From Shigella phage pSf-2, in the sequence record KP085586: DNA of 50,109 nt; one strand, 5' to 3'. Below, piece by piece: positions 7,734-35,510 of the stretch. The notes beneath the pieces are model-generated. The model ran no database searches and was not told the origin of the DNA. It was given only the letters and a program-made list of their open reading frames with translations. The translations under genes and the position numbers were made by a program. Positions within the stretch are counted from its first letter, which is position 1, and every line of letters starts with the position of its first letter.

Positions 7734-7745
7734 AGGAGAATCAAG

Positions 7746-15076: not shown

Positions 15077-15100
15077 AAAAGGGGCCAATCGGCCCCTTTC
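15077..15100. terminator. bidirectional Rho-independent terminator
   Basis: aggggcc-aatc-ggcccct hairpin flanked by A-run and T-run. Confidence 0.6.
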
Positions 15101-18552: not shown

Positions 18553-18598
18553 GATGTTTACCTTTTTGTGCTATTTATCTGTGGACTCATTATACAGG

Positions 18599-18626
18599 CG
18601 AAAAAAAACCCGCGCAAGGCGGGTTA
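18599..18626 (-). terminator. intra-operon terminator/attenuator between I-like and J-like genes
   Basis: acccgc-gcaag-gcgggt hairpin followed on minus strand by T8; same stem-loop as at 20788. Confidence 0.5.
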
Positions 18627-18629
18627 ATT

Positions 18630-19229
18630 TTAACTCATATCCTCGGCATAAGAACCTGCTGAGAAAGTTGCGCCACCTCCGGCGCGATATCCATACGGGA
18701 CCGGGAGAGGGTATCCCGCCGCCGTCGTATTGACAGCACCGCCGAACGCGTACGAAGGTTTATTCTTGCTTGATTGAACTTCAAAGTTTGCGCCACCCGG
18801 CTGCGGTGAAATCATCTGCATTACGCCGCCCAGCACCATAGCGCCGCCCATCATAAACAGAGACGAGGACATTGTGCCCATTAAAGCCAGAGACGCGCCG
18901 CCAGTATAGAATGCTGCAACCATTATTGCCGCGCCCAATACAACCTGGAATAGACCTCCCGTCTTAGAACCAGTGGGGATCGGTACGATTCTTATCTCTT
19001 TCGCGCACTTGAATTTTTCCTCTTCATGGTGTCCCACGTTAACGCCATCCACAAATATTGCAAACTTGCTACGTGATCCGACTTCACTCTGCATGTATTC
19101 TTTAAACCCGTCCACCTGACTGGATAGCGCACGGATAGCTTCCGGGTAAGAGTCAACAGCAAATCGGTGAAAGACGCCAAAGCGCCTTCCAAGTGAACCT
19201 GATAATTTGATTACTTTTACATCATTCAT
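18630..19229 (-). CDS. tail assembly protein (lambda I-like)
   Basis: 199 aa between K-like and J-like genes; Gly-rich hydrophobic C-terminus. Confidence 0.7.
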   Translation of the reverse strand: MNDVKVIKLSGSLGRRFGVFHRFAVDSYPEAIRALSSQVDGFKEYMQSEVGSRSKFAIFVDGVNVGHHEEEKFKCAKEIRIVPIPTGSKTGGLFQVVLGAAIMVAAFYTGGASLALMGTMSSSLFMMGGAMVLGGVMQMISPQPGGANFEVQSSKNKPSYAFGGAVNTTAAGYPLPVPYGYRAGGGATFSAGSYAEDMS

Positions 19230-19993
19230 AATTTGAGATCCTTATGGCGAACAATTAAAACAGTGTGTTCCTGATACCAGCCTGAATAAATATCACGTCG
19301 CGACAGCTTACCGAAGGCGTGATGCAAGATCTGATTATCACCCAGGTAAATCCCTGCGTGATTCCATACCGGAACATTTTGCCCTATTTGCATGATTACC
19401 ATATCACCAAATGAAGGCTGATTCTGATCTGGAATCTCAACGAATCCATCTTGCTTGTAATAATCCTGATAGAGATTTATTCCATACTCCGGTTTCCACC
19501 ATTCAAAATTCAATCGCCGATCGCGTAATTCTACGCCGTGCTCTTTGTGCCACGCCATAACAAGACCGTAACAGTCGAATGATCCTAATGACCACGGACG
19601 ACCAATCAGAGGTAATTTCTCCGGCTTCACAAATCGCATATCTCCTTCCGGCACGCTAACAATAATCCAGGTAACTTCCATCTCGTTGCACATGCACGTA
19701 TCGTGAGCGCTTGGTAGAGTTGTAGCCCCATCTCCGGTGTGGCTGTGAACAATTGCGATCGTAGTTGATTCCGAATCGTCCTCAATACATGCGTATTGCA
19801 CTGCGTCCATCATGAAGTGATTTTCAGGATCACGGTGTACATTATCAACGCGATGGTATTTTTGCACGCGGCCCTTTTGGGTGACTACCCCGCAGCATTC
19901 GCGGGGGTATTCTTCCTGAGCGTGAGTCATAATTTCAAGTTTAATTTTTGCACTAATCATTGATTTTTCCTCTGTAGTGAAGCGACAGCGCAA
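19226..19993 (-). CDS. tail assembly protein (lambda K-like; MPN/JAB plus NlpC/P60-like domains)
   Basis: HSHTG metal-binding motif and Cys/His residues; position after L-like gene. Confidence 0.8.
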   Translation of the reverse strand: MRCRFTTEEKSMISAKIKLEIMTHAQEEYPRECCGVVTQKGRVQKYHRVDNVHRDPENHFMMDAVQYACIEDDSESTTIAIVHSHTGDGATTLPSAHDTCMCNEMEVTWIIVSVPEGDMRFVKPEKLPLIGRPWSLGSFDCYGLVMAWHKEHGVELRDRRLNFEWWKPEYGINLYQDYYKQDGFVEIPDQNQPSFGDMVIMQIGQNVPVWNHAGIYLGDNQILHHAFGKLSRRDIYSGWYQEHTVLIVRHKDLKL

Positions 19994-20739
19994 CCGCCAA
20001 AATCCAATTCATTGTTTGCACCGAATCTCAGGCGGCAGGCCGTTACTGTTCCTGGGCAAAAATCCAGCGAAGGATCGTCTACCGGATTATTGTCTTTATC
20101 GAAGTAACCATTTTGCCCGTTGTATCCGCACCCTTTCCCGGTTTTATACCATCCCCTCTGCGCCCAATAGCAGACACTTTGTGTGAGTCTGGACGGGATC
20201 ATGATGCCGTCCATATCGTAAGGTGACGTTAGATCGAACCGCGCAATGCTTTTATCAACATAGTTCGGACGCTCGATATAGTATACCAGTTTGCGGTAAG
20301 CTCCGTCAGCGATTGAGCCATCAGATTGAATCAAGTCCTTTTGAGTTATCCAGATTGTCACCTTCGCCTGCATCAATCCGTTATATGCGCGAATCATTGC
20401 AGACACTCGACTGTCAATGTTTGCCACTGTCAATTGTGGCTTTGTGGCCTTGCCGGAACTGTCGAACGAGATCCCGGATATACCGAAAGGTCGCGCGCCG
20501 TATTGCTCGCCACGGAAGGTGATTTCTTTCGGCGGTAGCGTTCCGGTTTGCTGGGCCTGCATGATTTCTTCTGGAGTGTACTGGATATTCTCACCGTGGA
20601 ATCGGTACACCTGAGCGCCGAACTTACTACCATCAACTTCAATGAGAGTGATTATCTCTCCCGGATATAGTGATTGAAGGCAGTTGTGAAACAGGCTCTT
20701 TCCGCTTTCTTCATCATAAAGTTTTTTGTTTTCGCTCAT
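19957..20739 (-). CDS. minor tail protein (lambda L-like)
   Basis: 260 aa between M-like and K-like genes; C-terminal Cys cluster. Confidence 0.8.
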   Translation of the reverse strand: MSENKKLYDEESGKSLFHNCLQSLYPGEIITLIEVDGSKFGAQVYRFHGENIQYTPEEIMQAQQTGTLPPKEITFRGEQYGARPFGISGISFDSSGKATKPQLTVANIDSRVSAMIRAYNGLMQAKVTIWITQKDLIQSDGSIADGAYRKLVYYIERPNYVDKSIARFDLTSPYDMDGIMIPSRLTQSVCYWAQRGWYKTGKGCGYNGQNGYFDKDNNPVDDPSLDFCPGTVTACRLRFGANNELDFGGCAVASLQRKNQ

Positions 20740-20779
20740 TTATTTTTCCTCTTGTTTACCTGCAACCATTCTACAGCTA

Positions 20780-20810
20780 CAAAAAAACCCGCGCAAGGCG
20801 GGCTTTTGTT
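20780..20810. terminator. terminator-like hairpin between M-like and L-like genes
   Basis: cccgc-gcaag-gcggg stem-loop flanked by A7 and T-run; near-identical to hairpin at 18608. Confidence 0.5.
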
Positions 20811-20818
20811 ATATGGCG

Positions 20819-21172
20819 TTACTCCATAGATGTAAACTGCTCCATAAACGTAACGTTAATTTCCATCACGTCGCGTGATACTGGCTTAGCTCCCAGGCTG
20901 TTAGGCTTTACAACCCATATTCCGATCTTCCCGTCCGGCGGCGTCCATGCGAACGGTTTAATTCTGTGAGAATCGCAGAAGTTGTAAACAGCCATGAAAT
21001 CCTCACCAGCGTAGACAATCGAATACTCGCGTCTCGTGGTGTTGAATCCAGAAGATGCAAGCTGCATGTAGCCGTTGCCAAACTGTATGGATCTGTCATT
21101 ATTGGTAGTGGTAAGGGAGCCGCCGCCCCCTTGAACCTGCGTACACCAACCGAAAGTGTCAAGTGCAGCCAT
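20819..21172 (-). CDS. minor tail protein (lambda M-like)
   Basis: FGNGYMQ...YS...WTPP pattern matching lambda gpM; directly downstream of tape measure. Confidence 0.85.
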   Translation of the reverse strand: MAALDTFGWCTQVQGGGGSLTTTNNDRSIQFGNGYMQLASSGFNTTRREYSIVYAGEDFMAVYNFCDSHRIKPFAWTPPDGKIGIWVVKPNSLGAKPVSRDVMEINVTFMEQFTSME

Positions 21173-21239
21173 TATTAGCCTCCTGTTTTTTCCTGAATGT
21201 AATTGTAAACCTCACCGCCCTGTGAACAAGACTCTCGAA

Positions 21240-24047
21240 TCATTTTTTGAACATCATTTCTACGCCCTGAGAAATTCCTCTCGGATCTGAACCGTTGTCA
21301 ACTTTAACCTCCATACCCCTAACATCAACGACCGTCCCGCCTGCTGATTGGTTCACTGCCTTCGGTGCGGATTTAGATGCGTTAAATCCAGATGTTGCAA
21401 CACTACCCGCAGCGGCAGCAAGCGAGGTAACAGCGACGCCTGAAGATAAAGACCTAAAACCAGAGACGGCAGGCGTAGGAGTTTCCTGTGATACCGCAGA
21501 AGCACCAGGCGACACCCCTCCAGCAAAGCTCCACGTCTTACCGCCCATCATGCCTGAGATCGTATTGAAGATTACCATTTGAGCAATCATCTTGATAATC
21601 ATGCTAATGATGTTTTTCGCAAAGTCCTCAAAATTTGCCTTACCTGTAGTCAGGAATTGGGTCATCATGTCACTCATTCCGTTAAGTGAACTTGACGCGA
21701 TATCATACACGTTGCCGTACATATCCATTGCAGAATCGCCGTAATCTGCAAATGCACTTTCAGCACCTGCTAACCAGTCAGAACGCTTGGCATCTTCCGC
21801 AGCATAGTAATCATTTTGTGCCTTGATCATGTTCTGGAGTTTTTCATCTCCTTCGCTGCCACCTGCATTAATATAATCAGTAGTGATCTTAGCCAACTCA
21901 GCTTGTCTTTCCATTTCTCGGGTGCTCATCCCTCGAGACGCGTTTAGCTGTTCTGTAGCTGCCGTCAAATCATTGACAAATTTCAGTGATTTATCGGTAA
22001 GAGCGTTCAGCTGCTGCTGCTTAACAATCTGATCGCCAATCTCAGCCTTTTGTTTCGCAAGCTCTAAAACCTTCTCTTGGTTTGCAAGTAGTGCTTTTTC
22101 TTCCGCAGATAGCTGACGCTTAGAACTAGCTTCTCGAAGAACAGCAATTGTAGCCTCAGTCGTAAACAGCGCCTTTCTCTGTGCTGATATTTTTTGCCCG
22201 ATCTCCTTGTGCTCCTGCAAAACCTTAAGCTGCGCTTTGAGTGAAATTAACTCCTTATCGAATTGCTCTGTAGGTGAGCGTAAAATTTTCGACTGCTTAT
22301 TTCGTTCACGGTTTCGCTTTTCGATCTCTTTAGCTTCTTCCTTGATAGCGTCCTTAGTTTCCTGGCTATACTGCTTTTCAAGAGTACGGCGCTGCTTCAT
22401 TGCTTCAATGTATCCCATCTCACCTTTTTCAACACGGGCGTTAATGGCATCAAGCTCTGAAGCTAACTGATCGTAGTTGTCACGAGAACTTTTTACAATA
22501 TTCTCCTGTTCCTTTAGTACATCAGCACCAAAATCACTCATGCCAGGCAGGGACTGTGTAGCCTTAATTGCAGATGCGATAAAGTTTGAGATGTACTCAT
22601 CACCCTTAGCAAGAATCATTTTCACCTGAATTACTGTACCTTGAACTACGTCAATAATCAGGTTTAACGCTCCGAGCGTATGATCCCCAACCCATCCCCA
22701 CGCATCAGAAGCCCACTGCTTAATATCGTTCCACATTTTTTCAAGAGGTGTGGCATTGTCTGCGATCGACTTCATTCGTTTTTCCATTACATCGGCGAAT
22801 AATTTCGTGGCTTCAGACACTGCCTCCGTTTCACCCTTAGTACGGCTTAGAGTATCGATGTATGTCAGCTGTCCTTTTTCTAAAAAATTGTATTGCTCGT
22901 TAAGTTTAGCTAAACCCTTTACAGGATCGCTTGCGATTTTATCGAACTCAGCGATGATTTTACTTGCTGATTTTCCGGTTGCTGTCGACCACTCAGCGGT
23001 AGCTTTTGTGATGTTCTGAATCTGCTCTCGCGTATACTTCCCCGTACTGGCAAGTTCAGTAACAATATCACGAATACTTCCAACGGTTGAGTTACTTGTC
23101 TGCGCAACCTTTTTAGCAACCAAATCAAGATCATCAGCCGTAACTCCAGCATAACCTCCAGTCTCAATAAGTGCATTCTGCATATCAGTTATTGACTTGT
23201 AAGAGTCATAACCAGCTTTCGCAAGAAGACCTAAAGAACCGACAAGAACACCAACGCCAACTGTGACCGGATTAATATAACTTAGCAATACCTTAAACGT
23301 ATTCCCGATCCCGCCGAACGAGTCCTTGATTTGACCGCCTTGCTGGATGGCAACCATCCAAACTGGCATACCGGACGCAAGAGATGTAACGACGTCGGTA
23401 ATCTGTGCAGGAAGCATTCGCATTGCCTGCCTATATTGCCCTGCGCTAATACCTGCGGCATTCATGGCTCGACCCTGTTCTTTCAGTTTTGCGATCAGGG
23501 GCGCTGCTTCATTTGATAGTCCAAGCTGAGCCGCTTTCAGTTCCATTAACTCTGCGTGAGTTTTGCCAATGGCGTTAACCTGACTATTCAGGGAATCCAT
23601 GAACGCTTTGTTTTTCGCTGCCGCCTGCTCTTTTGCTTTCGCCTCCTGCAATGCTGCCTGACCTTCTTCTGTAAGCATGGCCCGGCTGCGAGCAAGTTTT
23701 GCGTTTTGCATATCCAGCATTTCACCTAACCGGAAAAATGTTTCATCTGGAACGACGCCCTTTTGCCAGAGCTTGTCAAGCTGCTGAGATGCAATCTTCA
23801 GCCTTTCCATTTTTGATACTGTAGGATCGATTGCCTTTTCTACAGCCTCGTACTCTTTTCGCTGGCGCTTAAGTTGCTCAGCGTGTTCTTTAGCCTTCTG
23901 TTTTGCAACCTCAGCCTCATTGATTAAAGACCCCATAGAGTCAGCGGCTTGGTCGTTAGCTTTTGAAAACTCTTTCAATGACTTGACGGCGCGCTCCACT
24001 GTCGACACATCAACGTCAAGCGATAGACCTGCTACCTTATCAACCAT
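21240..24047 (-). CDS. tail tape measure protein
   Basis: 935 aa, coiled-coil rich, Gly/Ser C-terminal region, between chaperones and M-like gene. Confidence 0.85.
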
Positions 24048-24062
24048 ATAACCCCCTTATAT

Positions 24063-24086
24063 ACAAAAAAACCGCCAAACGGCGGC
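24063..24086 (-). terminator. terminator/attenuator hairpin
   Basis: ccgcc-gttt-ggcgg followed by T7 on minus strand, overlapping stop of 24087 ORF. Confidence 0.45.
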
Positions 24087-24413
24087 TTAGTTATTCTGCT
24101 TAGCAATCATTTCGAGCGCTTTCGCTTCCATGATCCTAACGTCCTGCAATGCCAGTTCTTCATCCTCTATTTTATAGATTTTAAACAACATAGGCAAAAC
24201 ATTATAATCAAGACCGTAAGCGCCAGCGCCTGAACTTCTCCACTGAGTGAGCATTGATGTAAAAACATTCCAAGCCTTCAACATTTCAGCGTCGCCAATT
24301 ATCGTTTCCGGTTCCTCGTCTTCATAGTCAGAAAGACTTAAACCAACCGATCGCAATTGTTCCTCTGTTGGCGGCTTCTGATATAACAGATAGACCGCCT
24401 TTTTTAGTTTTTT
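24087..24413 (-). CDS. T-like extension of tail assembly chaperone, expressed by -1 frameshift from 24404..24721
   Basis: -1 frame is open from the slippery heptamer to stop at 24087; no ATG (track start is TTG); position before tape measure. Confidence 0.6.
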   Translation of the reverse strand, partial: KKLKKAVYLLYQKPPTEEQLRSVGLSLSDYEDEEPETIIGDAEMLKAWNVFTSMLTQWRSSGAGAYGLDYNVLPMLFKIYKIEDEELALQDVRIMEAKALEMIAKQNN

Positions 24414-24721
24414 GCGCGGTGTCCGGCAAGCGCCTTGATGTAAGTCGCTGTCAGGTTGTACGCTGCGGAAGGATAATACTGAACCAGTTTTCGTGAATTT
24501 TCTTCGTTAAATTCTTCTTCAAGGTTCCATCCTGACGCGATCTTGGTAATGAACTCGCTGTCGTTCATTTCTCCCTGGTTAGCATACATGTCCTGAACTT
24601 CTTTACTGGAAAGGTGTCGCACAGTGAAAATGATCGTTGCATCTTCACCGTTAGGCATGGTGAAGGTAACTGGAAGTTTGAAGTCTGGAAGTTGACCAAG
24701 AACGAAATTAAATTTAGCCAT
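24404..24721 (-). CDS. tail assembly chaperone (lambda G-like)
   Basis: 105 aa, acidic; ends GCA AAA AAC TAA so a slippery heptamer precedes the stop. Confidence 0.65.
   Translation of the reverse strand: MAKFNFVLGQLPDFKLPVTFTMPNGEDATIIFTVRHLSSKEVQDMYANQGEMNDSEFITKIASGWNLEEEFNEENSRKLVQYYPSAAYNLTATYIKALAGHRAKN
24407..24413 (-). other. -1 programmed frameshift slippery heptamer A AAA AAC
   Basis: X XXY YYZ heptamer in zero frame of G-like ORF immediately before its stop. Confidence 0.6.
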
Positions 24722-24742
24722 GATATTTCTCCTGATTGGTTA

Positions 24743-24760
24743 ATAGCACTTTTTGTTAAA
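24743..24760 (+). promoter_or_regulatory. 18-bp dyad motif copy (atagcactttttgttaaa), opposite orientation to flanking late genes
   Basis: 21 nt upstream of G-like start 24721 on other strand; followed by accaatcaggag leader. Confidence 0.55.
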
Positions 24761-24792
24761 AGCAAAGAGTGCAAAGTTGATACGATGATTTT

Positions 24793-24823
24793 ACAGAAAT
24801 GAAGAAGGGGGCGCAAGCCCCCT
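24793..24823 (-). terminator. terminator-like hairpin after major tail gene
   Basis: aggggg-cgcaag-ccccct hairpin, modest T-rich tract. Confidence 0.35.
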
Positions 24824-24834
24824 GTGGATATGAT

Positions 24835-25503
24835 TTAGGCACCAGGTGATGCCAGAGCGGATGAAACGAAAGTGAAATCACCCTTCAGGGATACGGCGAG
24901 TTGTACCGTTTCCATTTCGTTTACTTGCGTAGATGGAATGTCGTTAAAAGACAAGATACCAGCCCACATGCGCATCTCGTTCGCTTTTGGAACATACATC
25001 CGAACCGCAGTTACCTGACCAGAAGAATCCAGCTTACGCAGAATAGGATAGATAGGGTTATCAAATTCGTGCGCGAAGGTGTACGTTAGCGAGATTGCAG
25101 ACTTAAACGTCGGGATCTGCTGCTCTTTATCGTCAGACAAACACTGATAAGTGTAATACTGCTGCTCGCCGCCGTCCTGACCAATCTCCTGTACGCAAGG
25201 GATCTCAGTCCAGCCAGTAATTTTTGCAAAGCTCATTGTACCGCCAGCCGGGAAAACAAGAGCATCAGTAGTGTCAATCCCAGCAAGAGTAATGCTTGTT
25301 TCTTGGGCGTCAGTAACAATTAGTACTCGACTAACCATCTTAGCCCAAGTTGACTGAGTTACAATAACGTAATCACCTTTCGCCAAGTCGCCCTTAGATG
25401 CAACTGTAGCAACAGGATTTTTTGCGTTAGTGACAGCGGTCGCCTCGATCTCTTCTCCGCGAGAGGTTTCCACGAAAATTTGCGCGCCATTTGGTAAGTG
25501 CAT
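24835..25503 (-). CDS. major tail protein
   Basis: 222 aa, beta-rich, directly upstream of chaperone pair. Confidence 0.55.
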   Translation of the reverse strand: MHLPNGAQIFVETSRGEEIEATAVTNAKNPVATVASKGDLAKGDYVIVTQSTWAKMVSRVLIVTDAQETSITLAGIDTTDALVFPAGGTMSFAKITGWTEIPCVQEIGQDGGEQQYYTYQCLSDDKEQQIPTFKSAISLTYTFAHEFDNPIYPILRKLDSSGQVTAVRMYVPKANEMRMWAGILSFNDIPSTQVNEMETVQLAVSLKGDFTFVSSALASPGA

Positions 25504-25504
25504 A

Positions 25505-27110: not shown

Positions 27111-27121
27111 AATTTACCACC

Positions 27122-27148
27122 ATAAAAAAAAGGCGCTACATGAGCGCC
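27122..27148 (-). terminator. terminator-like hairpin
   Basis: aggcgct-acatg-agcgcct followed by T8 on minus strand. Confidence 0.45.
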
Positions 27149-27155
27149 TTGATGA

Positions 27156-27443: not shown

Positions 27444-27458
27444 TTTGATTTCTCCAAT

Positions 27459-27488
27459 AAAAAAAGGGACTAACTAAGTTAGCCCCTA
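27459..27488 (-). terminator. Rho-independent terminator after major capsid gene
   Basis: About 9-bp stem gggactaac/gttagcccc, T7 on minus strand. Confidence 0.55.
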
Positions 27489-27493
27489 TAATA

Positions 27494-28453
27494 TTACACG
27501 CCAGTGATTAAGACAATAGTCATCGGGCGATAAATTGTAAGACCAGTACACTTAGAGGTGCAAGGCACTTTAAAGTGCAAGTCTTTCGGTTGTGCTGGCA
27601 GCATGTTAAATGCTTCCGGGATCTCGATGGACATGTTCATCGGATTCTTTTCGTACACCAGTACGCCTTTGGTGCCTGCGCCGTCAATATCCTCAAGCTC
27701 TGCGATAGAGTCGATTTCGATACCTGAGTTCTGAGACTTGAAATAGTCCAGATAAGACATGGTAGTCTCAGGCATACGAATCGCCAGCACCTTACGCATG
27801 GACGGCGGGATCAGAATGTTGGTAGCTCGGTGCTGGCCTCGAGTAATCGTCTCGATGGTTTCGATCGCCTGAGTCAATTCCGCTTCAGCCGTTTCCGGTT
27901 TCTGAGTTGCGCCATCCATCCACTTACCGGAGGTAATTTTGGTGATGTTCGGATGATTGAACACGGACACAATCTTGTGCGGCGCGGAACCTTTGAACAC
28001 CAGGCGGTTAACAAGCTGATCATGAGCCAACTGGCACGCACTTGCCTTACGGGTTGACAGTGGACGACCAGTTGCCTGACCTGCTTTGATTTCGTCGATT
28101 GAGATCAGATACGCGTTACCAAGACGGAACACCTTGCCAAACTCAGAAGTACCCAGGGCGTCAACCAGCGGAAGATCGTCGGTGTAGTCTGCGATAATCT
28201 GAGCCGTACCAACCTTGTCAAAGGTCATGTATTCAAACGTCTTATCAGTCGGAGAAAGATCGGTTGTAACCGGGAATACGCGTAGAGCGGAGCCGACCGG
28301 GTAGTCTTCTTCATAGGACTGGCTTTTAATGCGGTGTAGTTCCTGAGCGGTCCAGATACCCATTGTTGCGGCTGCATCCTGTTTTACGCCAGCCTGGATC
28401 AGATACATTTCAACATTGCTTTTATCTGCTTCATCAAATTTTTTAGTAGTCAT
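27494..28453 (-). CDS. major capsid protein
   Basis: 319 aa, in capsid position downstream of scaffold and decoration-like genes, followed by strong terminator. Confidence 0.75.
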   Translation of the reverse strand: MTTKKFDEADKSNVEMYLIQAGVKQDAAATMGIWTAQELHRIKSQSYEEDYPVGSALRVFPVTTDLSPTDKTFEYMTFDKVGTAQIIADYTDDLPLVDALGTSEFGKVFRLGNAYLISIDEIKAGQATGRPLSTRKASACQLAHDQLVNRLVFKGSAPHKIVSVFNHPNITKITSGKWMDGATQKPETAEAELTQAIETIETITRGQHRATNILIPPSMRKVLAIRMPETTMSYLDYFKSQNSGIEIDSIAELEDIDGAGTKGVLVYEKNPMNMSIEIPEAFNMLPAQPKDLHFKVPCTSKCTGLTIYRPMTIVLITGV

Positions 28454-28472
28454 GATTACTTCTCCGTAGTTA

Positions 28473-28499
28473 ATAAAAAAGCCGTGATTATGTTCACGA
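28473..28499 (-). terminator. short hairpin plus T-run between promoter-like element and capsid gene
   Basis: cgtga-ttatgt-tcacg then T6 on minus strand. Confidence 0.35.
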
Positions 28500-28507
28500 C
28501 TTCAATA

Positions 28508-28525
28508 ATAGCACTTTTTGTTAAA
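28508..28525 (+). promoter_or_regulatory. 18-bp dyad motif copy (atagcactttttgttaaa) inside a minus-strand TTGACG-16-TATTAT element
   Basis: Motif occupies spacer of sigma70-like hexamers 28527-28532 and 28505-28510. Confidence 0.5.
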
Positions 28526-28544
28526 GCGTCAAAGTGTTTTTATG

Positions 28545-29312
28545 TTATGCATCAACCTCTGGCTCTGGCACTGCTTCTACGCGATAAGCAATGGTTGCCG
28601 TCGTCTTGCTGGCATCGTTAGCCGTCCATGTGATATTGAAATCACCGACAGATTCTCCACCAGCAGGAGTTACAAGACCTGAGTCAGGATCGATAGTAGC
28701 GATATTGGTAGCGTCTATTGACCACTTGCCAGTCTTATCAGTTGCATTAGCTGGAATAACATTAGCTACACACTGGATCGTAACGTTGTTTGGCTGAGGG
28801 CTTTCCTTGTCAGTGGTGATTGTAGCGGACTCAACAAGAACGACAGGGGGCGGCGGCGGTGGAACGATGAAAGCATTTTGTTTCACCTGAACCTCAATAA
28901 TGTAGCCATCTTCATGCTTAACAAAGCCGCCAGCAAAGGTCCATCCTGCGGAACCAGACCAACCAGTAACAACTCCACCAGATCCAAACTGCAACTTTGA
29001 GAACAAGCCGGGAGCCTCATCAAGAGAAGTAAGCGCCCACATGCGACCGTGAGAAACGACGTTGCAAACTTCGCCGTCGAGAATTTTACCGCTCAGGTGT
29101 TCATATTGAGAACGGAAAGCGATACCGTAAGGAGTCCCGCCATCAGAAAGTACTTTGACGACTTTTACACCATCAACGATGCCGACAACCTGAACCGCCG
29201 CGCCGAACTCAATGTCACCTTGAGCCACACAAGCGCCATCAATATTGTAGGTTGAAGTATCAGAAAGATTTCCCGGACACGCCGGGCGCAACATTAAATT
29301 TTCGTAAGCCAT
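28545..29312 (-). CDS. capsid-associated protein, paralog of 29374..29850 with poly-Pro linker and Ig-like C-terminal domain
   Basis: Shared N-terminal YNIDGACV...GAAVQVV...TPYG block; PPPPPPP linker. Confidence 0.5.
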   Translation of the reverse strand: MAYENLMLRPACPGNLSDTSTYNIDGACVAQGDIEFGAAVQVVGIVDGVKVVKVLSDGGTPYGIAFRSQYEHLSGKILDGEVCNVVSHGRMWALTSLDEAPGLFSKLQFGSGGVVTGWSGSAGWTFAGGFVKHEDGYIIEVQVKQNAFIVPPPPPPVVLVESATITTDKESPQPNNVTIQCVANVIPANATDKTGKWSIDATNIATIDPDSGLVTPAGGESVGDFNITWTANDASKTTATIAYRVEAVPEPEVDA

Positions 29313-29325
29313 AATGATTTCTCCA

Positions 29326-29358
29326 TAAAAAAAGGACTATCCAAAAAAGGATAGTCCC
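29326..29358 (-). terminator. Rho-independent terminator
   Basis: ggactatcc-aaaaaa-ggatagtcc hairpin, T7 on minus strand. Confidence 0.5.
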
Positions 29359-29373
29359 CATATTAAACGCTAA

Positions 29374-29850
29374 TTACAGTTGATGCAACTGAACCTCAAC
29401 AAGCTGAATATCTTTGTATTTAGTCCAACCGCCAGCGTAGGTCCAGGTTGTTTCGATCGTGCCATCAGATTTTTCCTGACCATCAACATCAAGTTTAACG
29501 GCAGAGCCGAAAGTTGGTGCTTCGGTGGATTTGGAAAGCATCCATACTCGGCCTGAAGTCATCACGTTGATAGCGCCGCCATCTTCGTAAATCATCTGAT
29601 TTTGAGCGTTAACAGTCTGCCAGTGAGATCGGATTGCCACGCCGTAAGGAGTGGTTCCGGTAGTAAGAGCCTTAACCAACTTATGACCATCAACCGCCTG
29701 AGATTGAACAACTTGTACGGCAGCGCCAACAAGAACATCACCTTCATTAACGACACAAGCGCCGTCAATATTGTACTTTGAAGTGTCCGCAACCATACCC
29801 GGAAGCGCAATCGCCATATCTCGCTGATAAGATGCATTAATTTGTGCCAT
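29374..29850 (-). CDS. capsid-associated protein (decoration-like candidate)
   Basis: 158 aa, paralogous to N-terminal domain of 28545..29312. Confidence 0.5.
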   Translation of the reverse strand: MAQINASYQRDMAIALPGMVADTSKYNIDGACVVNEGDVLVGAAVQVVQSQAVDGHKLVKALTTGTTPYGVAIRSHWQTVNAQNQMIYEDGGAINVMTSGRVWMLSKSTEAPTFGSAVKLDVDGQEKSDGTIETTWTYAGGWTKYKDIQLVEVQLHQL

Positions 29851-29861
29851 GATATTTCCCC

Positions 29862-30974
29862 TTACATTACTTTGCTTAAACGTGAATTTGGCGTAACAGG
29901 CGCGGCGTCGTTTTTCTCTTCCGGCTTACCGCCTTCGATAGAGTCGCCTTTTACTGCTTTACGCTGAATAGCCATGATATCAGAATCTTTAGCAACATCA
30001 AACATAGCGTCGATATATGCGTCTGATTTTTCACTAACATCTTTATCAAGCATGGCTTTAACTACGGCAATCTTGACGTCTTTGATATCAAGACCATCAT
30101 GTTTGACGCCTGCGGTTTCTGCTACTGCGGTAACTTCTGCGCGTGCGGCGGCATCGGCTTTTTGCTTCTCTACCTCGGCCTTCACAAGTTCCGGCAGAGA
30201 GTCAACCTTAACCTTCAGCGCATCGCGCTCAGCTTCGAAGCCATCAGCTTTGCCCTGAATGGTAGCAATCTGCGCGGTTAATTTTTCGATATGGTTCGCA
30301 ACTTCTTCGGTTACTTCCACATCAACTGAGTCGATCTTAATTTTTTTCATTTGCTTGTCCTCGTTAGTTAATTGAACGTTATTATCATACGGGAACTCCT
30401 GTTCGGCATCAAGATTTAATTTAGCAATTCCCGCACGACCTTTGAAAACAAGTGCAATATGGTTGACCTTGATATTAGTCTGTACCGCGTCAAATTTCAC
30501 CCAGCCTTCAGGTGGCGCTTCGTCCTGTTTCATATCCTCTTCGAAGATATATTCTCCAGTCTCATTTGAACCCCATCCCGGTTTATCAATATCTACTGAC
30601 GTGTAGCCAACAGATAATTCACCAGCTTCTTTTGCTTTAGCCTTGCTGATCGCGTAGTCGCTGTAAATGCTCAAAGGGACTTCAACTCCAACACCTGAAG
30701 CAATACCAGCGCCAGCGCACGATCCTACAACAACGTCCTTAGCATTCTGCGGAGTTACCGTTACGTGACCGACAGTAATTGGCTTCCCCGCAAAACTTTG
30801 CAAGGAGTCTTGCTTGAAAACTTCGGACGCCGGACGGAACTCAACTCGATCGCCGTGCGGCGTTTTGTAAACCTGAGCGCCGATTCGCGCCACGATTGGG
30901 CGGTCAACTAAAAAACCGTTATCATCAAAGTGCGCCTTGATTTTTACTGAATCGAATCTTTGCTTTGCCTTCAT
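29862..30974 (-). CDS. capsid scaffolding protein (possible protease-scaffold fusion)
   Basis: Coiled-coil, Ala/Lys/Glu-rich C-half; aggag SD before ATG 30974. Confidence 0.5.
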   Translation of the reverse strand: MKAKQRFDSVKIKAHFDDNGFLVDRPIVARIGAQVYKTPHGDRVEFRPASEVFKQDSLQSFAGKPITVGHVTVTPQNAKDVVVGSCAGAGIASGVGVEVPLSIYSDYAISKAKAKEAGELSVGYTSVDIDKPGWGSNETGEYIFEEDMKQDEAPPEGWVKFDAVQTNIKVNHIALVFKGRAGIAKLNLDAEQEFPYDNNVQLTNEDKQMKKIKIDSVDVEVTEEVANHIEKLTAQIATIQGKADGFEAERDALKVKVDSLPELVKAEVEKQKADAAARAEVTAVAETAGVKHDGLDIKDVKIAVVKAMLDKDVSEKSDAYIDAMFDVAKDSDIMAIQRKAVKGDSIEGGKPEEKNDAAPVTPNSRLSKVM

Positions 30975-30976
30975 TT

Positions 30977-31738
30977 TTAATCTCCTGTAGAAAAGTCTGG
31001 AACAGCCCAACAGCGGCAATTGTATTCCTCACCCGGGAATACGTGATCGGAATCTACCGCTATGCGCTTACCTTCCCATCTTACATGTTTTTCACGTTCA
31101 CGTAAATCCATCACCCCACGCCAGAAATAGTAAGAGACTCCAGCGTCTTTTATGCGCTGACGCATTAGTCTACTGTTCCAAGTTCCAACAATTCCCGACG
31201 CTCTATTTTTGGCCCAATTCCGGTAAACACCAAATCGCTCATTAGCAAGTTCAACAACAAAATCCTTGCTTTTACCCTGACCGGATGCAGCACGAAGTTT
31301 ATCAGTGAAATCAGTAACCATGTTGGCAGCAAATTTCCTGATAGAAGTAGTCACCTGCGATCGCCACAGATTATATTGTCCTGAGTACCAGCTTTCGGCA
31401 GCGGCAGGACCAATCAGGGCAAGTAGCATAACAGCTTGATTCTTCTTACCTCCAGCATTGCGAGCGATACGCAGCCACTGCTTAGAGTTGAATTTATAGA
31501 TCGTGAGCGCAACGGATGATAGAGAACCAATAATCGGAGCGATGAGTGATTCGACGTAATCAAGCAATGACCTTTCTGTCTGATCTATCTCTTCGTCGGT
31601 AGCATCAAATTTCATCGGCTTTAATTCGTCACGCATTTTTTCAGTTAGTTTGGCTGCAACATCCTGTAGGGAGCGCGACATTGCGCGCTCGCTCATTTCA
31701 GGATAGCGCCACTGTGTTGCAACGCCATTAATTTTCAT
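30977..31738 (-). CDS. head morphogenesis / minor capsid protein
   Basis: 253 aa immediately downstream of portal with overlapping start. Confidence 0.5.
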   Translation of the reverse strand: MKINGVATQWRYPEMSERAMSRSLQDVAAKLTEKMRDELKPMKFDATDEEIDQTERSLLDYVESLIAPIIGSLSSVALTIYKFNSKQWLRIARNAGGKKNQAVMLLALIGPAAAESWYSGQYNLWRSQVTTSIRKFAANMVTDFTDKLRAASGQGKSKDFVVELANERFGVYRNWAKNRASGIVGTWNSRLMRQRIKDAGVSYYFWRGVMDLREREKHVRWEGKRIAVDSDHVFPGEEYNCRCWAVPDFSTGD

Positions 31739-33011
31739 CTTCTAACTTCTCCCCTAATCCCGGTTCCGGTTCGGTTGTTTCTTCCGGTTCGCGAATGTTG
31801 ATGTTATTACCATCCTTGAGTTTGAACTCAGGGGCAATGGATCGCAACGTGTCGCGAGCTTCTTCCAGATCGATGATTTGCTCAGTGATAGCCTTCGTGA
31901 CTGACTCAACGTTATTCTTCGTGATCTCTGATTCCTCTTTCTTACTCGGAACAGACAAAGGCTCAAACTCGATCGACCACTCTTCCTCATCAACAATGAA
32001 CGGCAACAAGAACTCAAGAAGCGGCCTGTAATCTTCCTCGCGCTTGCGATCGACTAGCTTATAGAATGTCTCAAGCGCTGTGTTTTGGCTCGCTGATACG
32101 CCGCCTACGTTCTTATTCTTGATGATAATCTCATGAATCCCGGATAGGGAGACGATGCGGTCCATCTTGCTTGATAAGAACTCAGGAACTCCGCTGATAT
32201 CAGAGTTGAGAACGTCATATTCCTCAGTCTCAGCATCGATACCGATCGCACGGCCTACGCCGGAGTTATCATCAACCTGAGCAAGTCGCAGGCGCGCGGC
32301 ATACTGAGCATCATCATCATCACACATTTCGGCAAGACCTTTGACCTTCCATACAGCCTGTTGCTTACGTCGCAAGATCTGAGTAGCCAGGGATTCACAG
32401 TAATCATAGTCACAGATTGCATCAATCAGTGACTTGTTCAATACCGACGCTCCCCATCCTTGATTCTGCTTTCTTGCCTGTTGCGTTACTCGTTCACCAT
32501 CAGCAATAAAGACTCTTGAGTGATGAATCAGATACGGCTGCATATTGTCGCCAGGGGATACCTTGTAAATTTCAGGCTCACCATAGCGAGGGGATCTTGC
32601 ATTGGTGACTCGCTTTTCAACAGTGATAGCAAATCGATCGTAAACTCGGACGCCTTCAAGTTTAGCTCCAGGCCTTGCCTGACTGGTTAACATCCGGTTG
32701 TCGTTGATGATTGCCACCATCGCCGCGCCGCCGTAAAGTCGCGCCCAACAAAGAAGATCCACCAGACTTGAATCAAGTTTGTAGCTATCCCATAAAGACT
32801 TGAACTCTTTTTCATCCTTAACGCCTGACATTTTAAAACCAGCCGTCACCATCTCTTCCGGGATAACATCCACAATTCTCTTCGCGGTTGCGTTGTCGTT
32901 GTAGAAAGATCCTACGTGATATGATGCATCAGACATAAAGAATGGCTTAGGAGATCCGTCTGCACCGCCGTTAAAGATATCGTTATATCCATCATGCTTA
33001 ACAATTTTCAT
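31728..33011 (-). CDS. portal protein (start moved to internal ATG)
   Basis: 427 aa downstream of TerL; ggagg SD before ATG 33011; track start 33062 lies inside terminator hairpin. Confidence 0.75.
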   Translation of the reverse strand: MKIVKHDGYNDIFNGGADGSPKPFFMSDASYHVGSFYNDNATAKRIVDVIPEEMVTAGFKMSGVKDEKEFKSLWDSYKLDSSLVDLLCWARLYGGAAMVAIINDNRMLTSQARPGAKLEGVRVYDRFAITVEKRVTNARSPRYGEPEIYKVSPGDNMQPYLIHHSRVFIADGERVTQQARKQNQGWGASVLNKSLIDAICDYDYCESLATQILRRKQQAVWKVKGLAEMCDDDDAQYAARLRLAQVDDNSGVGRAIGIDAETEEYDVLNSDISGVPEFLSSKMDRIVSLSGIHEIIIKNKNVGGVSASQNTALETFYKLVDRKREEDYRPLLEFLLPFIVDEEEWSIEFEPLSVPSKKEESEITKNNVESVTKAITEQIIDLEEARDTLRSIAPEFKLKDGNNINIREPEETTEPEPGLGEKLEDEN

Positions 33012-33019
33012 GTTTCCTC

Positions 33020-33052
33020 CAATAAAAAAGGCCGTCAATTGACAGCCTTGAT
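33020..33052 (-). terminator. palindromic hairpin plus T-run between TerL and portal
   Basis: ggctgtcaa/ttgacggcc stem followed by T6. Confidence 0.4.
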
Positions 33053-33065
33053 TATATCTCATTTA

Positions 33066-34634
33066 TTACCGCTTAACCATCCCGGCGAGCCGCTTCATTC
33101 TCTCGATAGGATCATCAATGGTCAGCAATTCGATGTTCGCCGCATCCATGAAGTTATCGACGATATCATCATGCGGATGTGTGTCATCGTAAGTGAAGGC
33201 GCTGTGTTCAGCGATAATTTCAGCAAGCATAGGGTGCTCTTCTGGCAGAACCACACGCCCGGCTTTAATAACTGGCTGAGCATCCATAGCTCGGGTAACT
33301 TTGTCTTTGTTACGCTGCAACGGAGTGATAGAGATCGGAGTCTTTTTCCTGAGGTTCTGGATAAGGCCCGTACCGCTCGCTTTATCTTCCACGTAGATTT
33401 TTCGAAGCACGCCCATTGATTTATTGTGTCTCCATGCCTGATTAACGAAAGCGGTAAATTGTTTCTCCATATCCGGCGCTTCCCACTTACCGCGAATGCC
33501 GTCAATAAAGTAAACCTTATCGTTCTTCTTACCCCACAAGCAAAAGACTGTGTAGTCGTTTAGCTCGCCTGTCTTCTGAGCGGTATCGGCAGTGATGAAA
33601 CGGTAGTCGTACTTACCCGGATCTGGTTCGTCAGCGTCAAGGCTGCTGCCGTAATAAGTCCACCATTCCGAGTTAAACACGGAGCCACCAAGCGCGATCG
33701 GCTTCTGCTGATACTGAGAGTCAAAGGTGTACTGGTCAGCTTCGCGAAGCGCTAACAGGTCATGTACACTCTCCTTACTGGGCCAGAACGAGTAATGCTT
33801 GACGCCATCAAGTTCGACATACTCAGACGATAAAACGTCGCGCTCGAAGTAAGGTTGTAACCAGTCAGGAAGCGTCTTTCCGTATTCTTCCGTAACCAGC
33901 GCCGGGATTGAGATCTGGTCAAACTCAATACCCATCCCGCCATTCATCATGAACCATGTTGAATCCTGCGCGTGCAGCCTCTGCTGAATCGCAATAATTG
34001 GCGTCTCGTTGTGCATACGACGCGATCGAATGGTGTTCTTCAGTAGCATATGAGTACGCTCACGCTTAACCTTTGAGAACATATCATCAGGCTTATCGAT
34101 ATCGTCGAGCATCACCATACCGGAGAATCCCGGCATCATGTAGCCACCACGCGAACCAGTAATACGACCGCCAGCCGCTGCGGATATTAGCTCAAACCAA
34201 ACCTTTCCATCGCTATTAAGGACTTGCATCTCTTCGTCCTTCGACGTGCCGAATTTGCAGGGCCATAATTCTTGGAACTCGTTGCTGCTGATAATCTCAC
34301 GCACGCGCTTACTGTTACGCTTAACCAGACTGTCGGCAAACGACACGTTAAGGTTTCGCACCTTCTTACACTTGAGCATCGCGTACACCGGGAGATGTAT
34401 TGAGAACACCTCGGTTTTACCGGAGCCTGGCGTAACGTTAAAGATAGTATTACCGCGTCGGCCTGCAATAATTTCCTCCACTTCGTGGCAGAGGTAAAGG
34501 TGATGCCAGTTAGGCTGGAACTGCTGAGCCTGCATAAGCTGGAACCAGATCCGAATCATTTTTTCGAAATTGGCCTCGCTCATTTTCTTGATCGCTAACT
34601 TCTGAGTTGCGTCGAGTTCTTCCCATTGAATCAT
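33066..34634 (-). CDS. terminase large subunit
   Basis: 522 aa; ATPase N-domain, acidic nuclease-type motifs in C-half; upstream of portal. Confidence 0.85.
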   Translation of the reverse strand: MIQWEELDATQKLAIKKMSEANFEKMIRIWFQLMQAQQFQPNWHHLYLCHEVEEIIAGRRGNTIFNVTPGSGKTEVFSIHLPVYAMLKCKKVRNLNVSFADSLVKRNSKRVREIISSNEFQELWPCKFGTSKDEEMQVLNSDGKVWFELISAAAGGRITGSRGGYMMPGFSGMVMLDDIDKPDDMFSKVKRERTHMLLKNTIRSRRMHNETPIIAIQQRLHAQDSTWFMMNGGMGIEFDQISIPALVTEEYGKTLPDWLQPYFERDVLSSEYVELDGVKHYSFWPSKESVHDLLALREADQYTFDSQYQQKPIALGGSVFNSEWWTYYGSSLDADEPDPGKYDYRFITADTAQKTGELNDYTVFCLWGKKNDKVYFIDGIRGKWEAPDMEKQFTAFVNQAWRHNKSMGVLRKIYVEDKASGTGLIQNLRKKTPISITPLQRNKDKVTRAMDAQPVIKAGRVVLPEEHPMLAEIIAEHSAFTYDDTHPHDDIVDNFMDAANIELLTIDDPIERMKRLAGMVKR

Positions 34635-34672
34635 ATCAATTCTCCTGTATGGGCGCTTGCGCGCCCTTAACG

Positions 34673-35197
34673 TTAAAGCATGTCAAGAATACTGTTTACA
34701 GCCTCTTTCATTGCGTCCTCAGTGGTGGCGACTACTGTCGATGCGGAAGCTGCCGAGTTTTCGATATTGATTGAGGCTGGCTTATCGATTCCGAGATCCT
34801 TACCGATAAAGGAGGCGTTAATAACACCGTTGGCGGCAAGCTGGAATTTTTGCTCATTTATTACCGACTCAACAAACTCCATAACCTCACTGTATTCTTC
34901 CTCTCGCTTCCACTTAATGATTGCGGCCTCGCTTGCACCGATAAATAGTCGGTATCCGGTCCAGGTGAAGACGCGCGGCTTATGAACTAGCGATTCATAA
35001 ACGCCACCCTGAAAGCTGGCTGATTCTGACGCCTTGATTGCGTTGTCCTCGGCCCATTCGAAATACTTCACTGAAAGATCGAATAGTTGCTCTGGCGTCA
35101 TCGCTCTGTTTTTCGCGAGTACAGTGCCGAATTTTTTCTTGTATAGCTCTTTGAAATTACCTCCCTGGACTACGGGAGCGTTCTTAGGTTCACTCAT
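34673..35197 (-). CDS. terminase small subunit candidate (start moved to internal ATG)
   Basis: Upstream of TerL; aaagagga SD before ATG 35197. Confidence 0.5.
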   Translation of the reverse strand: MSEPKNAPVVQGGNFKELYKKKFGTVLAKNRAMTPEQLFDLSVKYFEWAEDNAIKASESASFQGGVYESLVHKPRVFTWTGYRLFIGASEAAIIKWKREEEYSEVMEFVESVINEQKFQLAANGVINASFIGKDLGIDKPASINIENSAASASTVVATTEDAMKEAVNSILDML

Positions 35198-35249
35198 AAA
35201 TAAATCCTCTTTGTTTAACATTTAGTGTTATTTTACCATATTGCAGGCA

Positions 35250-35273
35250 TAAAAAAACCCGCCGAAGCGGGTT
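35250..35273 (-). terminator. Rho-independent terminator upstream of terminase genes
   Basis: acccgc-cgaa-gcgggt hairpin, T7 on minus strand; extended -10 tggtaaaat follows. Confidence 0.5.
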
Positions 35274-35281
35274 AGTATTTA

Positions 35282-35509: not shown

Positions 35510-35510
35510 G

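Follow-up and report, generated by a model that had tools for sequence, protein, structure and literature searches.

The window, by which is meant the whole 50,109 nucleotide stretch analysed, is from Shigella phage pSf-2 (KP085586), a Tunavirus with ~93% identity to T1 and ADB-2, and its late genes are on the minus strand. From upstream of TerS, through TerL, portal, the decoration, major capsid and major tail genes and on to J, that block is punctuated by short hairpins (Table 1). A preliminary description of positions 18,599 to 35,273 had placed ten such structures on the minus strand and called them terminator-like. Each is where it was placed, and the label is borne out both by the sequence hallmarks of Rho-independent termination and by the conservation of position across the family that is described below. 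The term 'capsid paralogs' used there is also apt, the 158 and 255 amino acid capsid (decoration) proteins being 44% identical (E = 9e-34). An eleventh hairpin, after J and outside that range, closes the late block. All eleven are in minus-strand intergenic gaps, 3′ of a stop codon and in the same orientation as the gene; they are short and GC-rich, with 5–10 pairs, folding energies of -10.4 to -17.1 kcal/mol and minimum free energy z-scores, relative to shuffles, of -2.5 to -6.1. In nine of the ten (10 of 11 when the element after J is counted) 6–8 U residues directly follow the stem, and nine of the ten are canonical intrinsic terminators in pSf-2. The exception is the one that follows the major tail gene, at 24823-24806, whose U-tract is broken, the tail being UUCUUCAUUUC; most relatives have a clean U-run there.

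Table 1. Terminators and predicted promoters from TerS to J. Hairpin positions are those of the stems; dG is in kcal/mol; fractions are the relatives with a promoter score of at least 8; 'T1' refers to record AY216660.
Feature	Position	Strand	Predicted start near	Details
Intrinsic terminator, small membrane-protein gene (35282..35509) to TerS	35256..35273	-		AACCCGCUUCGGCGGGUU then U7; dG -11.3; annotated in T1
Predicted TerS promoter	35230..35238	-	35223	Extended -10 TGgTAAAAT, 22 nt past stem; 15/15 distinct relatives; a marbox-like sequence overlaps the predicted start
Intrinsic terminator after TerL	33028..33049	-		AAGGCUGUCAAUUGACGGCCUU then U-run; dG -13.2, z -6.1; absent from T1 annotation
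Predicted portal promoter, type B	33051..33079	-	33044	TGGTTA-17-TATAAT; 29/42 distinct relatives, background 1%
Intrinsic terminator between two decoration-protein paralogs (dec>Ig)	29332..29359	-		dG -17.1; annotated in T1
Predicted Ig-like decoration gene promoter, type B	29360..29388	-	29353	TTGCAT-17-TAATAT, abuts stem; 23/37
Terminator-like hairpin before major capsid gene	28478..28503	-		10 pairs (2 G-U), then U-run; dG -11.8; annotated in T1
Predicted major-capsid promoter, type B	28505..28532	-	28498	TTGACG-16-TGcTATTAT; 35/38; annotated as promoter in T1; a reverse-orientation marbox, 28511-28525 (+), fills the spacer
Intrinsic terminator after major capsid gene	27465..27487	-		dG -13.3; annotated in T1
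Predicted promoter before 95-aa gene, type B	27488..27516	-	27481	TTGTCT-17-TATTAT; 20/38
Intrinsic terminator after 95-aa gene (o46>con1)	27130..27150	-		dG -11.4; annotated in T1; without overlapping promoter
GC-rich hairpin after major tail gene	24806..24823	-		AGGGGGCUUGCGCCCCCU; dG -14.0; unannotated in T1; U-tract interrupted
Predicted G/GT promoter, type A	24788..24816	-	24781	-35 TTGCGC (hairpin loop + 3′ arm), 17-nt spacer, -10 TAAAAT; 27/43, with -35 TTGCGC in 24 of these 27
Candidate antisense promoter	24746..24786	+		Consensus marbox 24746-24760; TGaTACGAT exactly 20 nt on, -10 at 24781-24786; back-to-back with G promoter
Intrinsic terminator after GT frameshift product (T>TMP)	24069..24088	-		Directly on stop codon; dG -11.8; annotated in T1; without overlapping promoter
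Intrinsic terminator after M	20785..20806	-		Stem-loop CCCGCCUUGCGCGGG, same as after I; dG -11.6; annotated in T1
Predicted L-K-I promoter, type A	20768..20796	-	20761	TTGCGC (loop + 3′ arm)-17-TAGAAT; 38/44
Intrinsic terminator after I	18607..18625	-		AACCCGCCUUGCGCGGGUU then U8; dG -10.4; annotated in T1
Predicted J promoter, type A	18589..18617	-	18582	TTGCGC (loop + 3′ arm)-17-TATAAT; 33/39; a marbox-like sequence, 18571-18557, is in the leader
Eleventh terminator, after J	15078..15099	-		dG -15.9; closes late block; also reads as a plus-strand terminator

Would such DNA have this many terminator-like elements by chance? A strict scan, defined by a compact stem, a dG at or below -9 and a tail starting TTT, gave 11 matches on the minus strand of 15001-35600, as against 2.11 ± 1.33, with a maximum of 5, in 100 dinucleotide shuffles, and ten of the 11 are in the intergenic DNA that makes up ~3.5% of the sequence. 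A laxer scan of both strands gave 33 versus 17.6 ± 4.5, and the loosest (dG at or below -6 with a loose tail), with ~200 matches on both strands, was uninformative and gave way to the strict one. The stem-loops after I and after M had been said to be identical, and they are: CCCGCCTTGCGCGGG is present at both 18609-18623 and 20789-20803. Around this core a longer repeat, of 45 nt, reaches into the downstream -10-like box, and 35237-35281 is a third copy that has diverged further. A repetitive extragenic palindrome family was considered and rejected, as only three of the 11 hairpins share sequence and the remaining stems are unrelated.

That hairpin terminators punctuate this region was already known from T1. 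The elements here are orthologous to the annotated ones, at the same gene junctions of a ~93% identical genome: the T1 record (GenBank AY216660) marks rho-independent terminators at eight of the ten corresponding places, lacking only those that follow TerL and the major tail gene, and it also has a promoter before the capsid gene. As relayed in PMC11447400, Roberts et al. 2004 described the T1 late region in terms of 'transcriptons' with terminators on their flanks. The preliminary observation is thus sound, not new; by itself it is the rediscovery of annotated features in a classic phage, which changes little and serves as an entry point. A search of the literature for experimental 5′ or 3′ ends, Term-seq or RNA-seq for any T1-like phage found none.

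The comparison set was 62 related Drexlerviridae loci, with capsid proteins 57–100% identical. Across these the junctions are bimodal. Either the genes overlap or abut, as they do at portal>hmp>protease, con1>con2>o43>U, TMP>M and L>K>I, or there is a gap with a hairpin, and at the ten hairpin junctions a gap with a hairpin of dG at or below -8 is present in essentially every locus; none of the 59 relatives with both flanking genes lacks the terminator after TerL. The stems themselves vary between clades, with 4–20 distinct ones per junction among the loci classed as terminators (20 in 37 such loci for that between the decoration paralogs), and compensatory changes are seen, so that it is structure rather than sequence that is conserved, as is the U-run after the stem. 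For the capsid terminator 90.1% of cells are paired versus 76.6% when shuffled, and there are 18 double changes versus 6.3, a number as high being reached in 0 of 500 shuffles. The dec>Ig stems gave a poor MAFFT/RNAalifold alignment of near-zero energy because they are non-homologous between clades. For classifying junctions, A-U closing pairs were trimmed, because in the lowest-energy fold the U-run was taken up by pairing with upstream A's, and a synteny rule was used to separate the tblastn matches of dec and Ig, which are confused because the genes are paralogs.

Stable GC-rich stems at every module boundary would also suit a role after transcription, in which processing of a long read-through mRNA yields pieces whose 3′ ends the hairpins shield from exonucleases, with segment-specific half-lives as the result, and the major-tail hairpin is conserved despite its poor U-tract in this phage. 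The long U-run after nine of the ten stems, conserved in the family, is however needless for a pure stabiliser, and we consider it quite improbable that this is what the hairpins are mainly for. No processing signal was found at them, and no Rfam family matched any part of the window at gathering thresholds. The RNase III hairpins of T7, like those here, punctuate a long phage gene block and define stable mRNA 3′ ends, but their stems are longer and irregular and lack a U-run, and the RNA is cleaved at them instead of being terminated there. A T7-type RNase III site was rejected for the pSf-2 elements, whose short, perfect GC stems with U6-8 are unlike long irregular ones with an internal loop. 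Protection of 3′ ends is plausible for any terminator, and is compatible with termination instead of being an alternative to it.

What is new is the detail, coming from sequence comparison, that at eight of the ten junctions a conserved sigma-70-like promoter appears to overlap the terminator. The motifs consist of a -35 hexamer resembling TTGACA and a -10 hexamer resembling TATAAT, 16–18 bp apart. Scored with a position weight matrix built on our own approximate frequencies, and with an arbitrary cut-off of at least 8, they pass in 50–100% of distinct relatives at the eight junctions, counts that are not independent because the sequences are phylogenetically related; the background is 1.0% for 9-position and 2.9% for 25-position windows. 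The other two junctions serve as internal controls, with 0/39 relatives passing at o46>con1, on either side, and 0/34 at T>TMP. Eight of the 26 promoter-like matches in the window are within the 3.5% of DNA that is intergenic. No statement of the overlap geometry, with a -35 in the loop or a -10 abutting the stem, was found in the accessible T1 literature, a scope outside which the 2004 genome paper falls.

Two layouts recur. In type A, before G, L and J, the -35 starts 8–13 nt within the hairpin and is mostly TTGCGC, TTGTGC or TTGCGG. Much of the 17-nt spacer after it is U-tract, and the -10, TAnAAT, comes 12–14 nt past the stem. Since the TTGCGC is supplied by the hairpin loop and 3′ arm, the two 'identical' stem-loops find their explanation here. 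The TerS junction is of a looser, downstream type, with its extended -10, TGnTAAAAT, 22 nt past the stem. In type B, before the portal, Ig-like decoration, major capsid and 95-aa genes, TTGnnn-16/17-TAnnAT is at the end of the upstream gene and the -10 ends 0–4 nt ahead of the stem (3 nt at portal; before the 95-aa gene it abuts the stem, with the -35 within the final capsid-gene codons), so that the predicted start lies within the 5′ arm. Transcripts starting there would therefore be unable to form the full terminator: at the two junctions of the window for which this was computed, with a start 6–8 nt past the -10, hairpins of -10.7 or -11.8 are left with a residual -2.2 to -5.5 kcal/mol. The top promoter score of the late region is that of the major-capsid promoter. 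Reading TGTATAAT as an extended -10 was rejected, as its TG adjoins the hexamer without an intervening base, and the hexamers stand alone. The type B -35 boxes are in coding sequence and their conservation could reflect protein constraint, just as that of TTGCGC in type A loops could reflect hairpin constraint, and a promoter firing a few nucleotides ahead of a terminator might yield merely terminated transcripts. As conserved promoter-like motifs are also present within genes U and T, the map of units may be incomplete.

Could the block instead be served by a single late promoter upstream of TerS, with leaky hairpins causing a stepwise fall in transcripts that sets protein stoichiometry? Graded read-through of that kind had been proposed at the outset, and the hairpins do have the form of terminators. 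Two junctions are without an overlapping promoter, and such attenuators are known in Escherichia coli, for instance at rplL/rpoB. In rplKAJL-rpoBC and in rpsU-dnaG-rpoD an intrinsic terminator within a co-directional block lowers distal expression, and these are the likely counterpart of the two promoterless junctions; there, however, one or two sites are involved, whereas the T1-like block has ten or eleven in 20 kb, mostly coupled to promoters. Ten or eleven canonical terminators with 6–8 U in series would leave next to no expression of L, K, I and J. Nor is gene order one of falling need, the major capsid gene being behind four terminators and the major tail gene behind six or more. Pure graded read-through from one promoter is made unlikely by the overlapping promoter motifs, conserved at eight junctions and far above background, and as the main logic of the block we judge it improbable; as a local device it is reasonable at o46>con1 (27150-27130) and T>TMP (24088-24069) only. 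A phage antiterminator comparable to lambda Q or N, overriding the terminators late and leaving structural genes silenced early only, would account for the tolerance of many strong terminators in an essential gene block. However, none is annotated in T1 or TLS, the conserved junction promoters make one unnecessary, and its involvement seems to us very unlikely.

The reading that we favour, and hold to be rather probable, is that host RNA polymerase stops at the hairpins as at Rho-independent terminators, that these split the 20-kb structural-gene block into about ten short transcription units, and that most of the hairpins are fused to the promoter of the next unit. At eight of the ten junctions, ~45–80 bp of DNA would end one mRNA and start another from a sigma-70-type promoter, the hairpin loop and 3′ arm (TTGCGC) acting as the -35 where the layout is type A, and the o46>con1 and T>TMP junctions, without an overlapping promoter, would be attenuators. 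That RNA chains do end and begin at these junctions, and begin at the positions given in Table 1, is what we infer from the conserved hairpins and motifs. The stops would be expected in the U-tracts, near 35250, 33022, 29326, 28472, 27459, 27124, 24063, 20780, 18601 and 15072. Protein dosage would then be mainly a matter of the promoter strength of each unit, partial read-through and the protection of 3′ ends by hairpins being secondary.

To our knowledge T1 uses host polymerase only, and we know of no mechanism for its timing. A bolder proposal, put forward tentatively since we doubt that all of it is right, joins three elements: dual-use junction cassettes, a relay of re-initiation on the spot, and gating of the late promoters by a repeat. 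In such a cassette the terminator loop would double as a -35, or the start would fall within the terminator stem, and host polymerase released at the U-tract could re-initiate there, giving a relay of short, hairpin-capped late mRNAs. After RNA release at an intrinsic terminator, E. coli RNA polymerase can stay on the DNA and restart nearby (PMC6978380, PMC10372574, PMC11364550), and an overlapping promoter is at the shortest possible distance for restart. This recycling has been demonstrated in single-molecule systems; for T1-like junctions it is purely a possible mechanism.

The repeat in question is the family's unexplained 'DR', which is an exact match to the MarA/SoxS/Rob marbox, consensus AYnGCACnnWnnRYYAAAY / GCAnnWWnTGnnAAA (PMC3709825, PMC12052159), in class II geometry. 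There are 20 exact matches, versus 0.94 ± 1.0 expected. The best -10 hexamer is exactly 20 nt past the marbox in 14 of the 20 window copies, and in TLS it is at +19 or +20 in 15 of 19; at the junction before G the +20 spacing is seen in 15 of the 24 distinct relatives that carry the box. A spacing of +20 puts the marbox centre near -40, and that of micF is near -41. A class II marbox is one in forward orientation, centred between -36 and -55, that replaces the -35, and the copies with this spacing conform to that. Some fifteen early promoters have the box in this activating position. By contrast, a marbox covers the core or the leader of the promoters of TerS, capsid, G and J, and among these arrangements is the candidate antisense promoter that lies back-to-back with that of G at the head-tail boundary. 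With a host stress regulator that could drive early genes and restrain late ones until titrated or decayed, the late promoters may in this way be gated by DR. A phmmer search of the phage ORFs with approximate MarA and SoxS query sequences found no homolog, and another candidate for the DR binder is the phage's own Cro-like HTH protein, of 150 aa and encoded at 7746..8198. DR as an extended -10 (TGnTAAAAn) was rejected because its -7 position is not T, and DR as an UP element or a MotA-box-like site was rejected in favour of the exact marbox match.

An overlap of terminator and promoter, if real, would give a compact insulator part of natural origin. The comparative data turn a known set of terminators into a concrete map of about ten units, with coordinates predicted for where each starts and stops. 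Should the marbox reading be true, a triple mutant in marA, soxS and rob would offer a test of the timing of T1-like phages.

The window is the genome of a Tunavirus (Drexlerviridae) whose packaging, head and tail genes are encoded by the minus strand; a sequence search with region 18000-36000 gives 430 matching phage records, among which Escherichia phage ADB-2 (93.7%) and T1 (92.9%) match best over the full length. Gene order is as in the T1 annotation, from a small membrane protein through TerS, TerL, portal, head morphogenesis and protease to a decoration protein, an Ig-like decoration protein, major capsid, a 95-aa protein and four connector/tail-completion genes, and then major tail, G/GT, tape measure, M, L, K, I and J. 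The two decoration proteins are related as paralogs, sharing 44% identity over 147 aa (E = 9e-34), and the second of them has a further C-terminal part. An A-run of 6, versus 7 in most close relatives, cuts the tape-measure ORF short by 22 codons, so that 67 nt separate it from M; the run is a homopolymer sequencing error, or else the truncation is real. At the G/GT -1 frameshift site the slippery heptamer A AAA AAC is followed by a 7-nt spacer and then a 30-nt hairpin (dG about -13.5), which itself scores as a + strand 'terminator' in scans.

The preliminary description placed ten hairpins with T-runs along the minus strand of the late block, and all ten are where it put them. Folded alone they reach -10.4 to -17.1 kcal/mol (z-scores -2.5 to -6.1), and nine have 6-8 U directly after the stem; the tenth, 3' of the major tail gene, has a strong stem and an interrupted tail, UUCUUCAUUUC, at a site where most relatives have a clean U-run. 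An eleventh canonical element lies 3' of J. Could so many be accidental? The coding strand of 15001-35600 has 11 matches to a strict terminator definition (compact stem, dG <= -9, tail starting TTT) versus 2.11 ± 1.33 (maximum 5) in 100 dinucleotide shuffles of that region, and 10 of them are intergenic, in gaps that form about 3.5% of it, the other, within the major tail gene, being probably a chance match. The stem-loops after M and I are indeed identical, as had been noticed, and both are the core of a 45-nt repeat. The terminator observation is confirmed and statistically solid. It is correct but already known, since orthologous terminators are annotated in T1: the T1 GenBank record has "terminator, rho-independent" at 8 of the 10 homologous junctions, all except those that follow TerL and the major tail gene. 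Papers on other T1-like genomes give 18-21 terminators, and for the T1-like relative TLS its paper gives 21 intergenic ones, with transcriptons that its authors were unable to confirm (PMC11447400).

Across the family, with 22-23 late genes mapped onto 62 loci around capsid-gene homologs (57-100% protein identity), each spanning most of the late block, junctions are bimodal. Genes overlap or abut from portal through head morphogenesis to protease, from the first connector gene through the second and o43 to U, from tape measure to M, and from L through K to I (54-61 of 55-62 loci), and exactly the ten flagged junctions have gaps (median 38-91 nt) with a hairpin of dG ≤ -8 at essentially every locus. 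Where a case was classed as "weak U", the cause is almost always pairing of the U-run with A's that flank the stem. Stems change in sequence from clade to clade: among loci classed as terminators a junction has 4-20 distinct ones, and each of them still folds perfectly. For the capsid-gene terminator (17 distinct sequences) 90.1% of cells are paired versus 76.6% when shuffled, double-change cells number 18 versus 6.3, and none of 500 shuffles reaches the covariation score; sliding the alignment register lowers paired cells to 36-73%. By these sequence comparisons the hairpins are conserved RNA structures under selection, with the form of terminators.

When junctions are compared in register, conserved -10-like and -35-like boxes appear at them. 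Scoring was by a simple sigma-70 weight matrix with our own approximate frequencies; as background, taken from randomly chosen positions of these loci, 1.0% of 9-position windows and 2.9% of 25-position windows score ≥ 8. The junction counts in the table are of distinct sequences that are nonetheless mutually related, with some boxes within coding or structured sequence. In what we term type A, the -35 starts 8-13 nt inside the hairpin, whose loop and 3' arm supply TTGCGC, TTGTGC or TTGCGG, the 16-18 nt spacer is largely the U-tract, and TAnAAT starts 10-15 nt past the stem, a geometry that would account for the identity of the M and I stem-loops and for the conservation of the loop CUUGCG. 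In type B, TTGnnn (or TGGTTA)-16/17-TAnnAT has a -10 ending 0-4 nt 5' of the stem, and its -35 TTG is retained even when clades differ in the C-terminal coding sequence of the gene upstream. A start 6-8 nt past the -10 would give a transcript without the bottom of the stem. For portal and the capsid gene, the two type B junctions computed in the window, such shortening weakens the hairpin from -10.7 or -11.8 kcal/mol to a value between -2.2 and -5.5. Transcripts of this kind should escape a terminator that stops upstream ones. Two control junctions have similar AT-rich post-stop contexts, and no locus reaches threshold there. In the window 8 of 26 promoter-like matches fall in the intergenic 3.5%. 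Two further conserved motifs occur within genes U and T, so the unit map is perhaps incomplete. A stricter published search called none of these promoters in TLS; the T1 record annotates a single promoter, upstream of the capsid gene.

How, then, might the late genes be expressed? The sequence patterns make it probable that the block is a chain of short units, each closed by an intrinsic terminator, and that most of them begin at a promoter joined to the terminator of the unit before. Promoter strength would be the chief determinant of expression, the best match being the one for capsid (TTGACG-16-TGcTATTAT), and the two plain terminators would lower expression of genes beyond them. The terminator form assumed in the preliminary description stands; its graded read-through, as sole mechanism, is unlikely, as a series of ten terminators that look strong would leave the distal tail genes short of transcript, the gene order is at odds with decreasing need, and the predicted junction promoters are conserved. 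That the hairpins are purely post-transcriptional stabilisers is quite improbable, for it leaves the conserved U-runs unexplained, though 3' end protection probably accompanies termination. Nothing points to antitermination, which we consider very improbable indeed.

Features of the window, with predicted promoters at late junctions and their occurrence in relatives
Feature	Position (strand)	Occurrence or remark
Decoration paralogs	29374-29850(-), 28545-29312(-)	
Tape-measure A-run	21240-21250(-)	
G/GT slippery heptamer; hairpin	24413-24407(-); 24399-24370(-)	
Hairpin 3' of major tail gene	24823-24806	
Element 3' of J	15099-15078	
45-nt repeat	18588-18632, 20767-20811	third, weaker copy 35237-35281
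Type A, major tail>G		27/43 score ≥ 8
Type A, M>L		38/44 score ≥ 8
Type A, I>J		33/39 score ≥ 8
Downstream type, before TerS, TGnTAAAAT 22 nt past stem		15/15 score ≥ 8
Type B, TerL>portal		29/42 score ≥ 8
Type B, decoration>Ig-like		23/37 score ≥ 8
Type B, Ig-like>major capsid		35/38 score ≥ 8
Type B, major capsid>95-aa gene		20/38 score ≥ 8
Control, promoter on neither side, 95-aa gene>first connector		0/39 score ≥ 8
Control, promoter on neither side, T>tape measure		0/34 score ≥ 8
TTGCTG-16-TGnTAAAAT, about 122 nt before major tail gene	25620-25647(-)	39/46 relatives; coding constraint possible
TTGCCT-17-TAAAAT, about 127 nt before tape-measure gene	24169-24197(-)	30/38 relatives; coding constraint possible
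Exact marboxes, minus strand, examples	37045-37059, 38533-38547, 40080-40094, 41367-41381, 42387-42401, 43127-43141	
Exact marboxes, plus strand, examples	45506-45520, 45970-45984, 46304-46318, 47656-47670	
Early-promoter inverted repeats, examples	42351-42384, 41330-41360, 40045-40075, 38495-38525, 46320-46345	
Marbox reversed in capsid promoter spacer	28511-28525(+)	35/38 relatives
Marbox over predicted TerS start	35214-35228(-)	15/15 relatives
Marbox forward in J leader	18557-18571(-)	29/39 relatives
Marbox reversed in G leader	24746-24760(+)	25/43 relatives
Candidate antisense promoter; its -10	24746-24793(+); 24781-24786	
Sense G -10	24793-24788	
Cro-like protein gene; adjoining repeat copy	7746..8198(+); 7716-7734	

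The family has a 21-nt direct repeat, aaATAGCACnnnTTGnTAAAA, left without explanation in the TLS paper (PMC11447400), and it occurs about 20 times in the window. The repeat (ATAGCACnnnTTGnTAAAA) fits the consensus of the MarA/SoxS/Rob marbox exactly, AYnGCACnnWnnRYYAAAY or GCAnnWWnTGnnAAA (PMC3709825, PMC12052159), exact matches numbering 20 versus 0.94 ± 1.0 expected. For 14 of the 20 the best -10 hexamer within 45 nt is exactly 20 nt past the box, several reading TGaTATAGT; TLS has 19 copies, 15 with a -10 at +19 or +20. This spacing puts the box centre near -40, forward, at the usual place of the -35, the same arrangement as a class II marbox. The marbox reading is a lead, short of a result. 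A search of the phage ORFs gave none that is MarA- or SoxS-like, and the literature searched gave no marbox link to T1-like phages. A 150-aa protein, ortholog of the TLS 'transcriptional regulator', has a weak, sub-threshold Cro/YdaS-like helix-turn-helix match; its gene is divergent from an adjoining copy of the repeat, and it is a possible alternative binder. At early promoters the -10 lies between the arms of an inverted repeat, e.g. GGGGTA tcttgaTATAGT TACCCC; the arms vary between copies yet remain complementary, and the repeat could work as a DNA element, form RNA structure in read-through transcripts or serve as an antisense terminator.

In the late block marboxes occupy non-activating positions, conserved in 25-37 of about 40 distinct relatives (all 15 for TerS). 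The G-leader box is accompanied by a TGnTAnnnT of its own, at a distance of 20 nt on the strand opposite to G (TGaTACGAT in the window), a spacing kept in 15 of 24 distinct relatives with the box; together they form a candidate antisense promoter at the head-tail boundary that points into the major tail gene and stands back-to-back with the promoter of G, the two -10s adjoining. The late-block marbox positions suggest that a single factor could switch early promoters on and impede the late ones. The overlap geometry of promoter and terminator, and the marbox reading, are new hypotheses.
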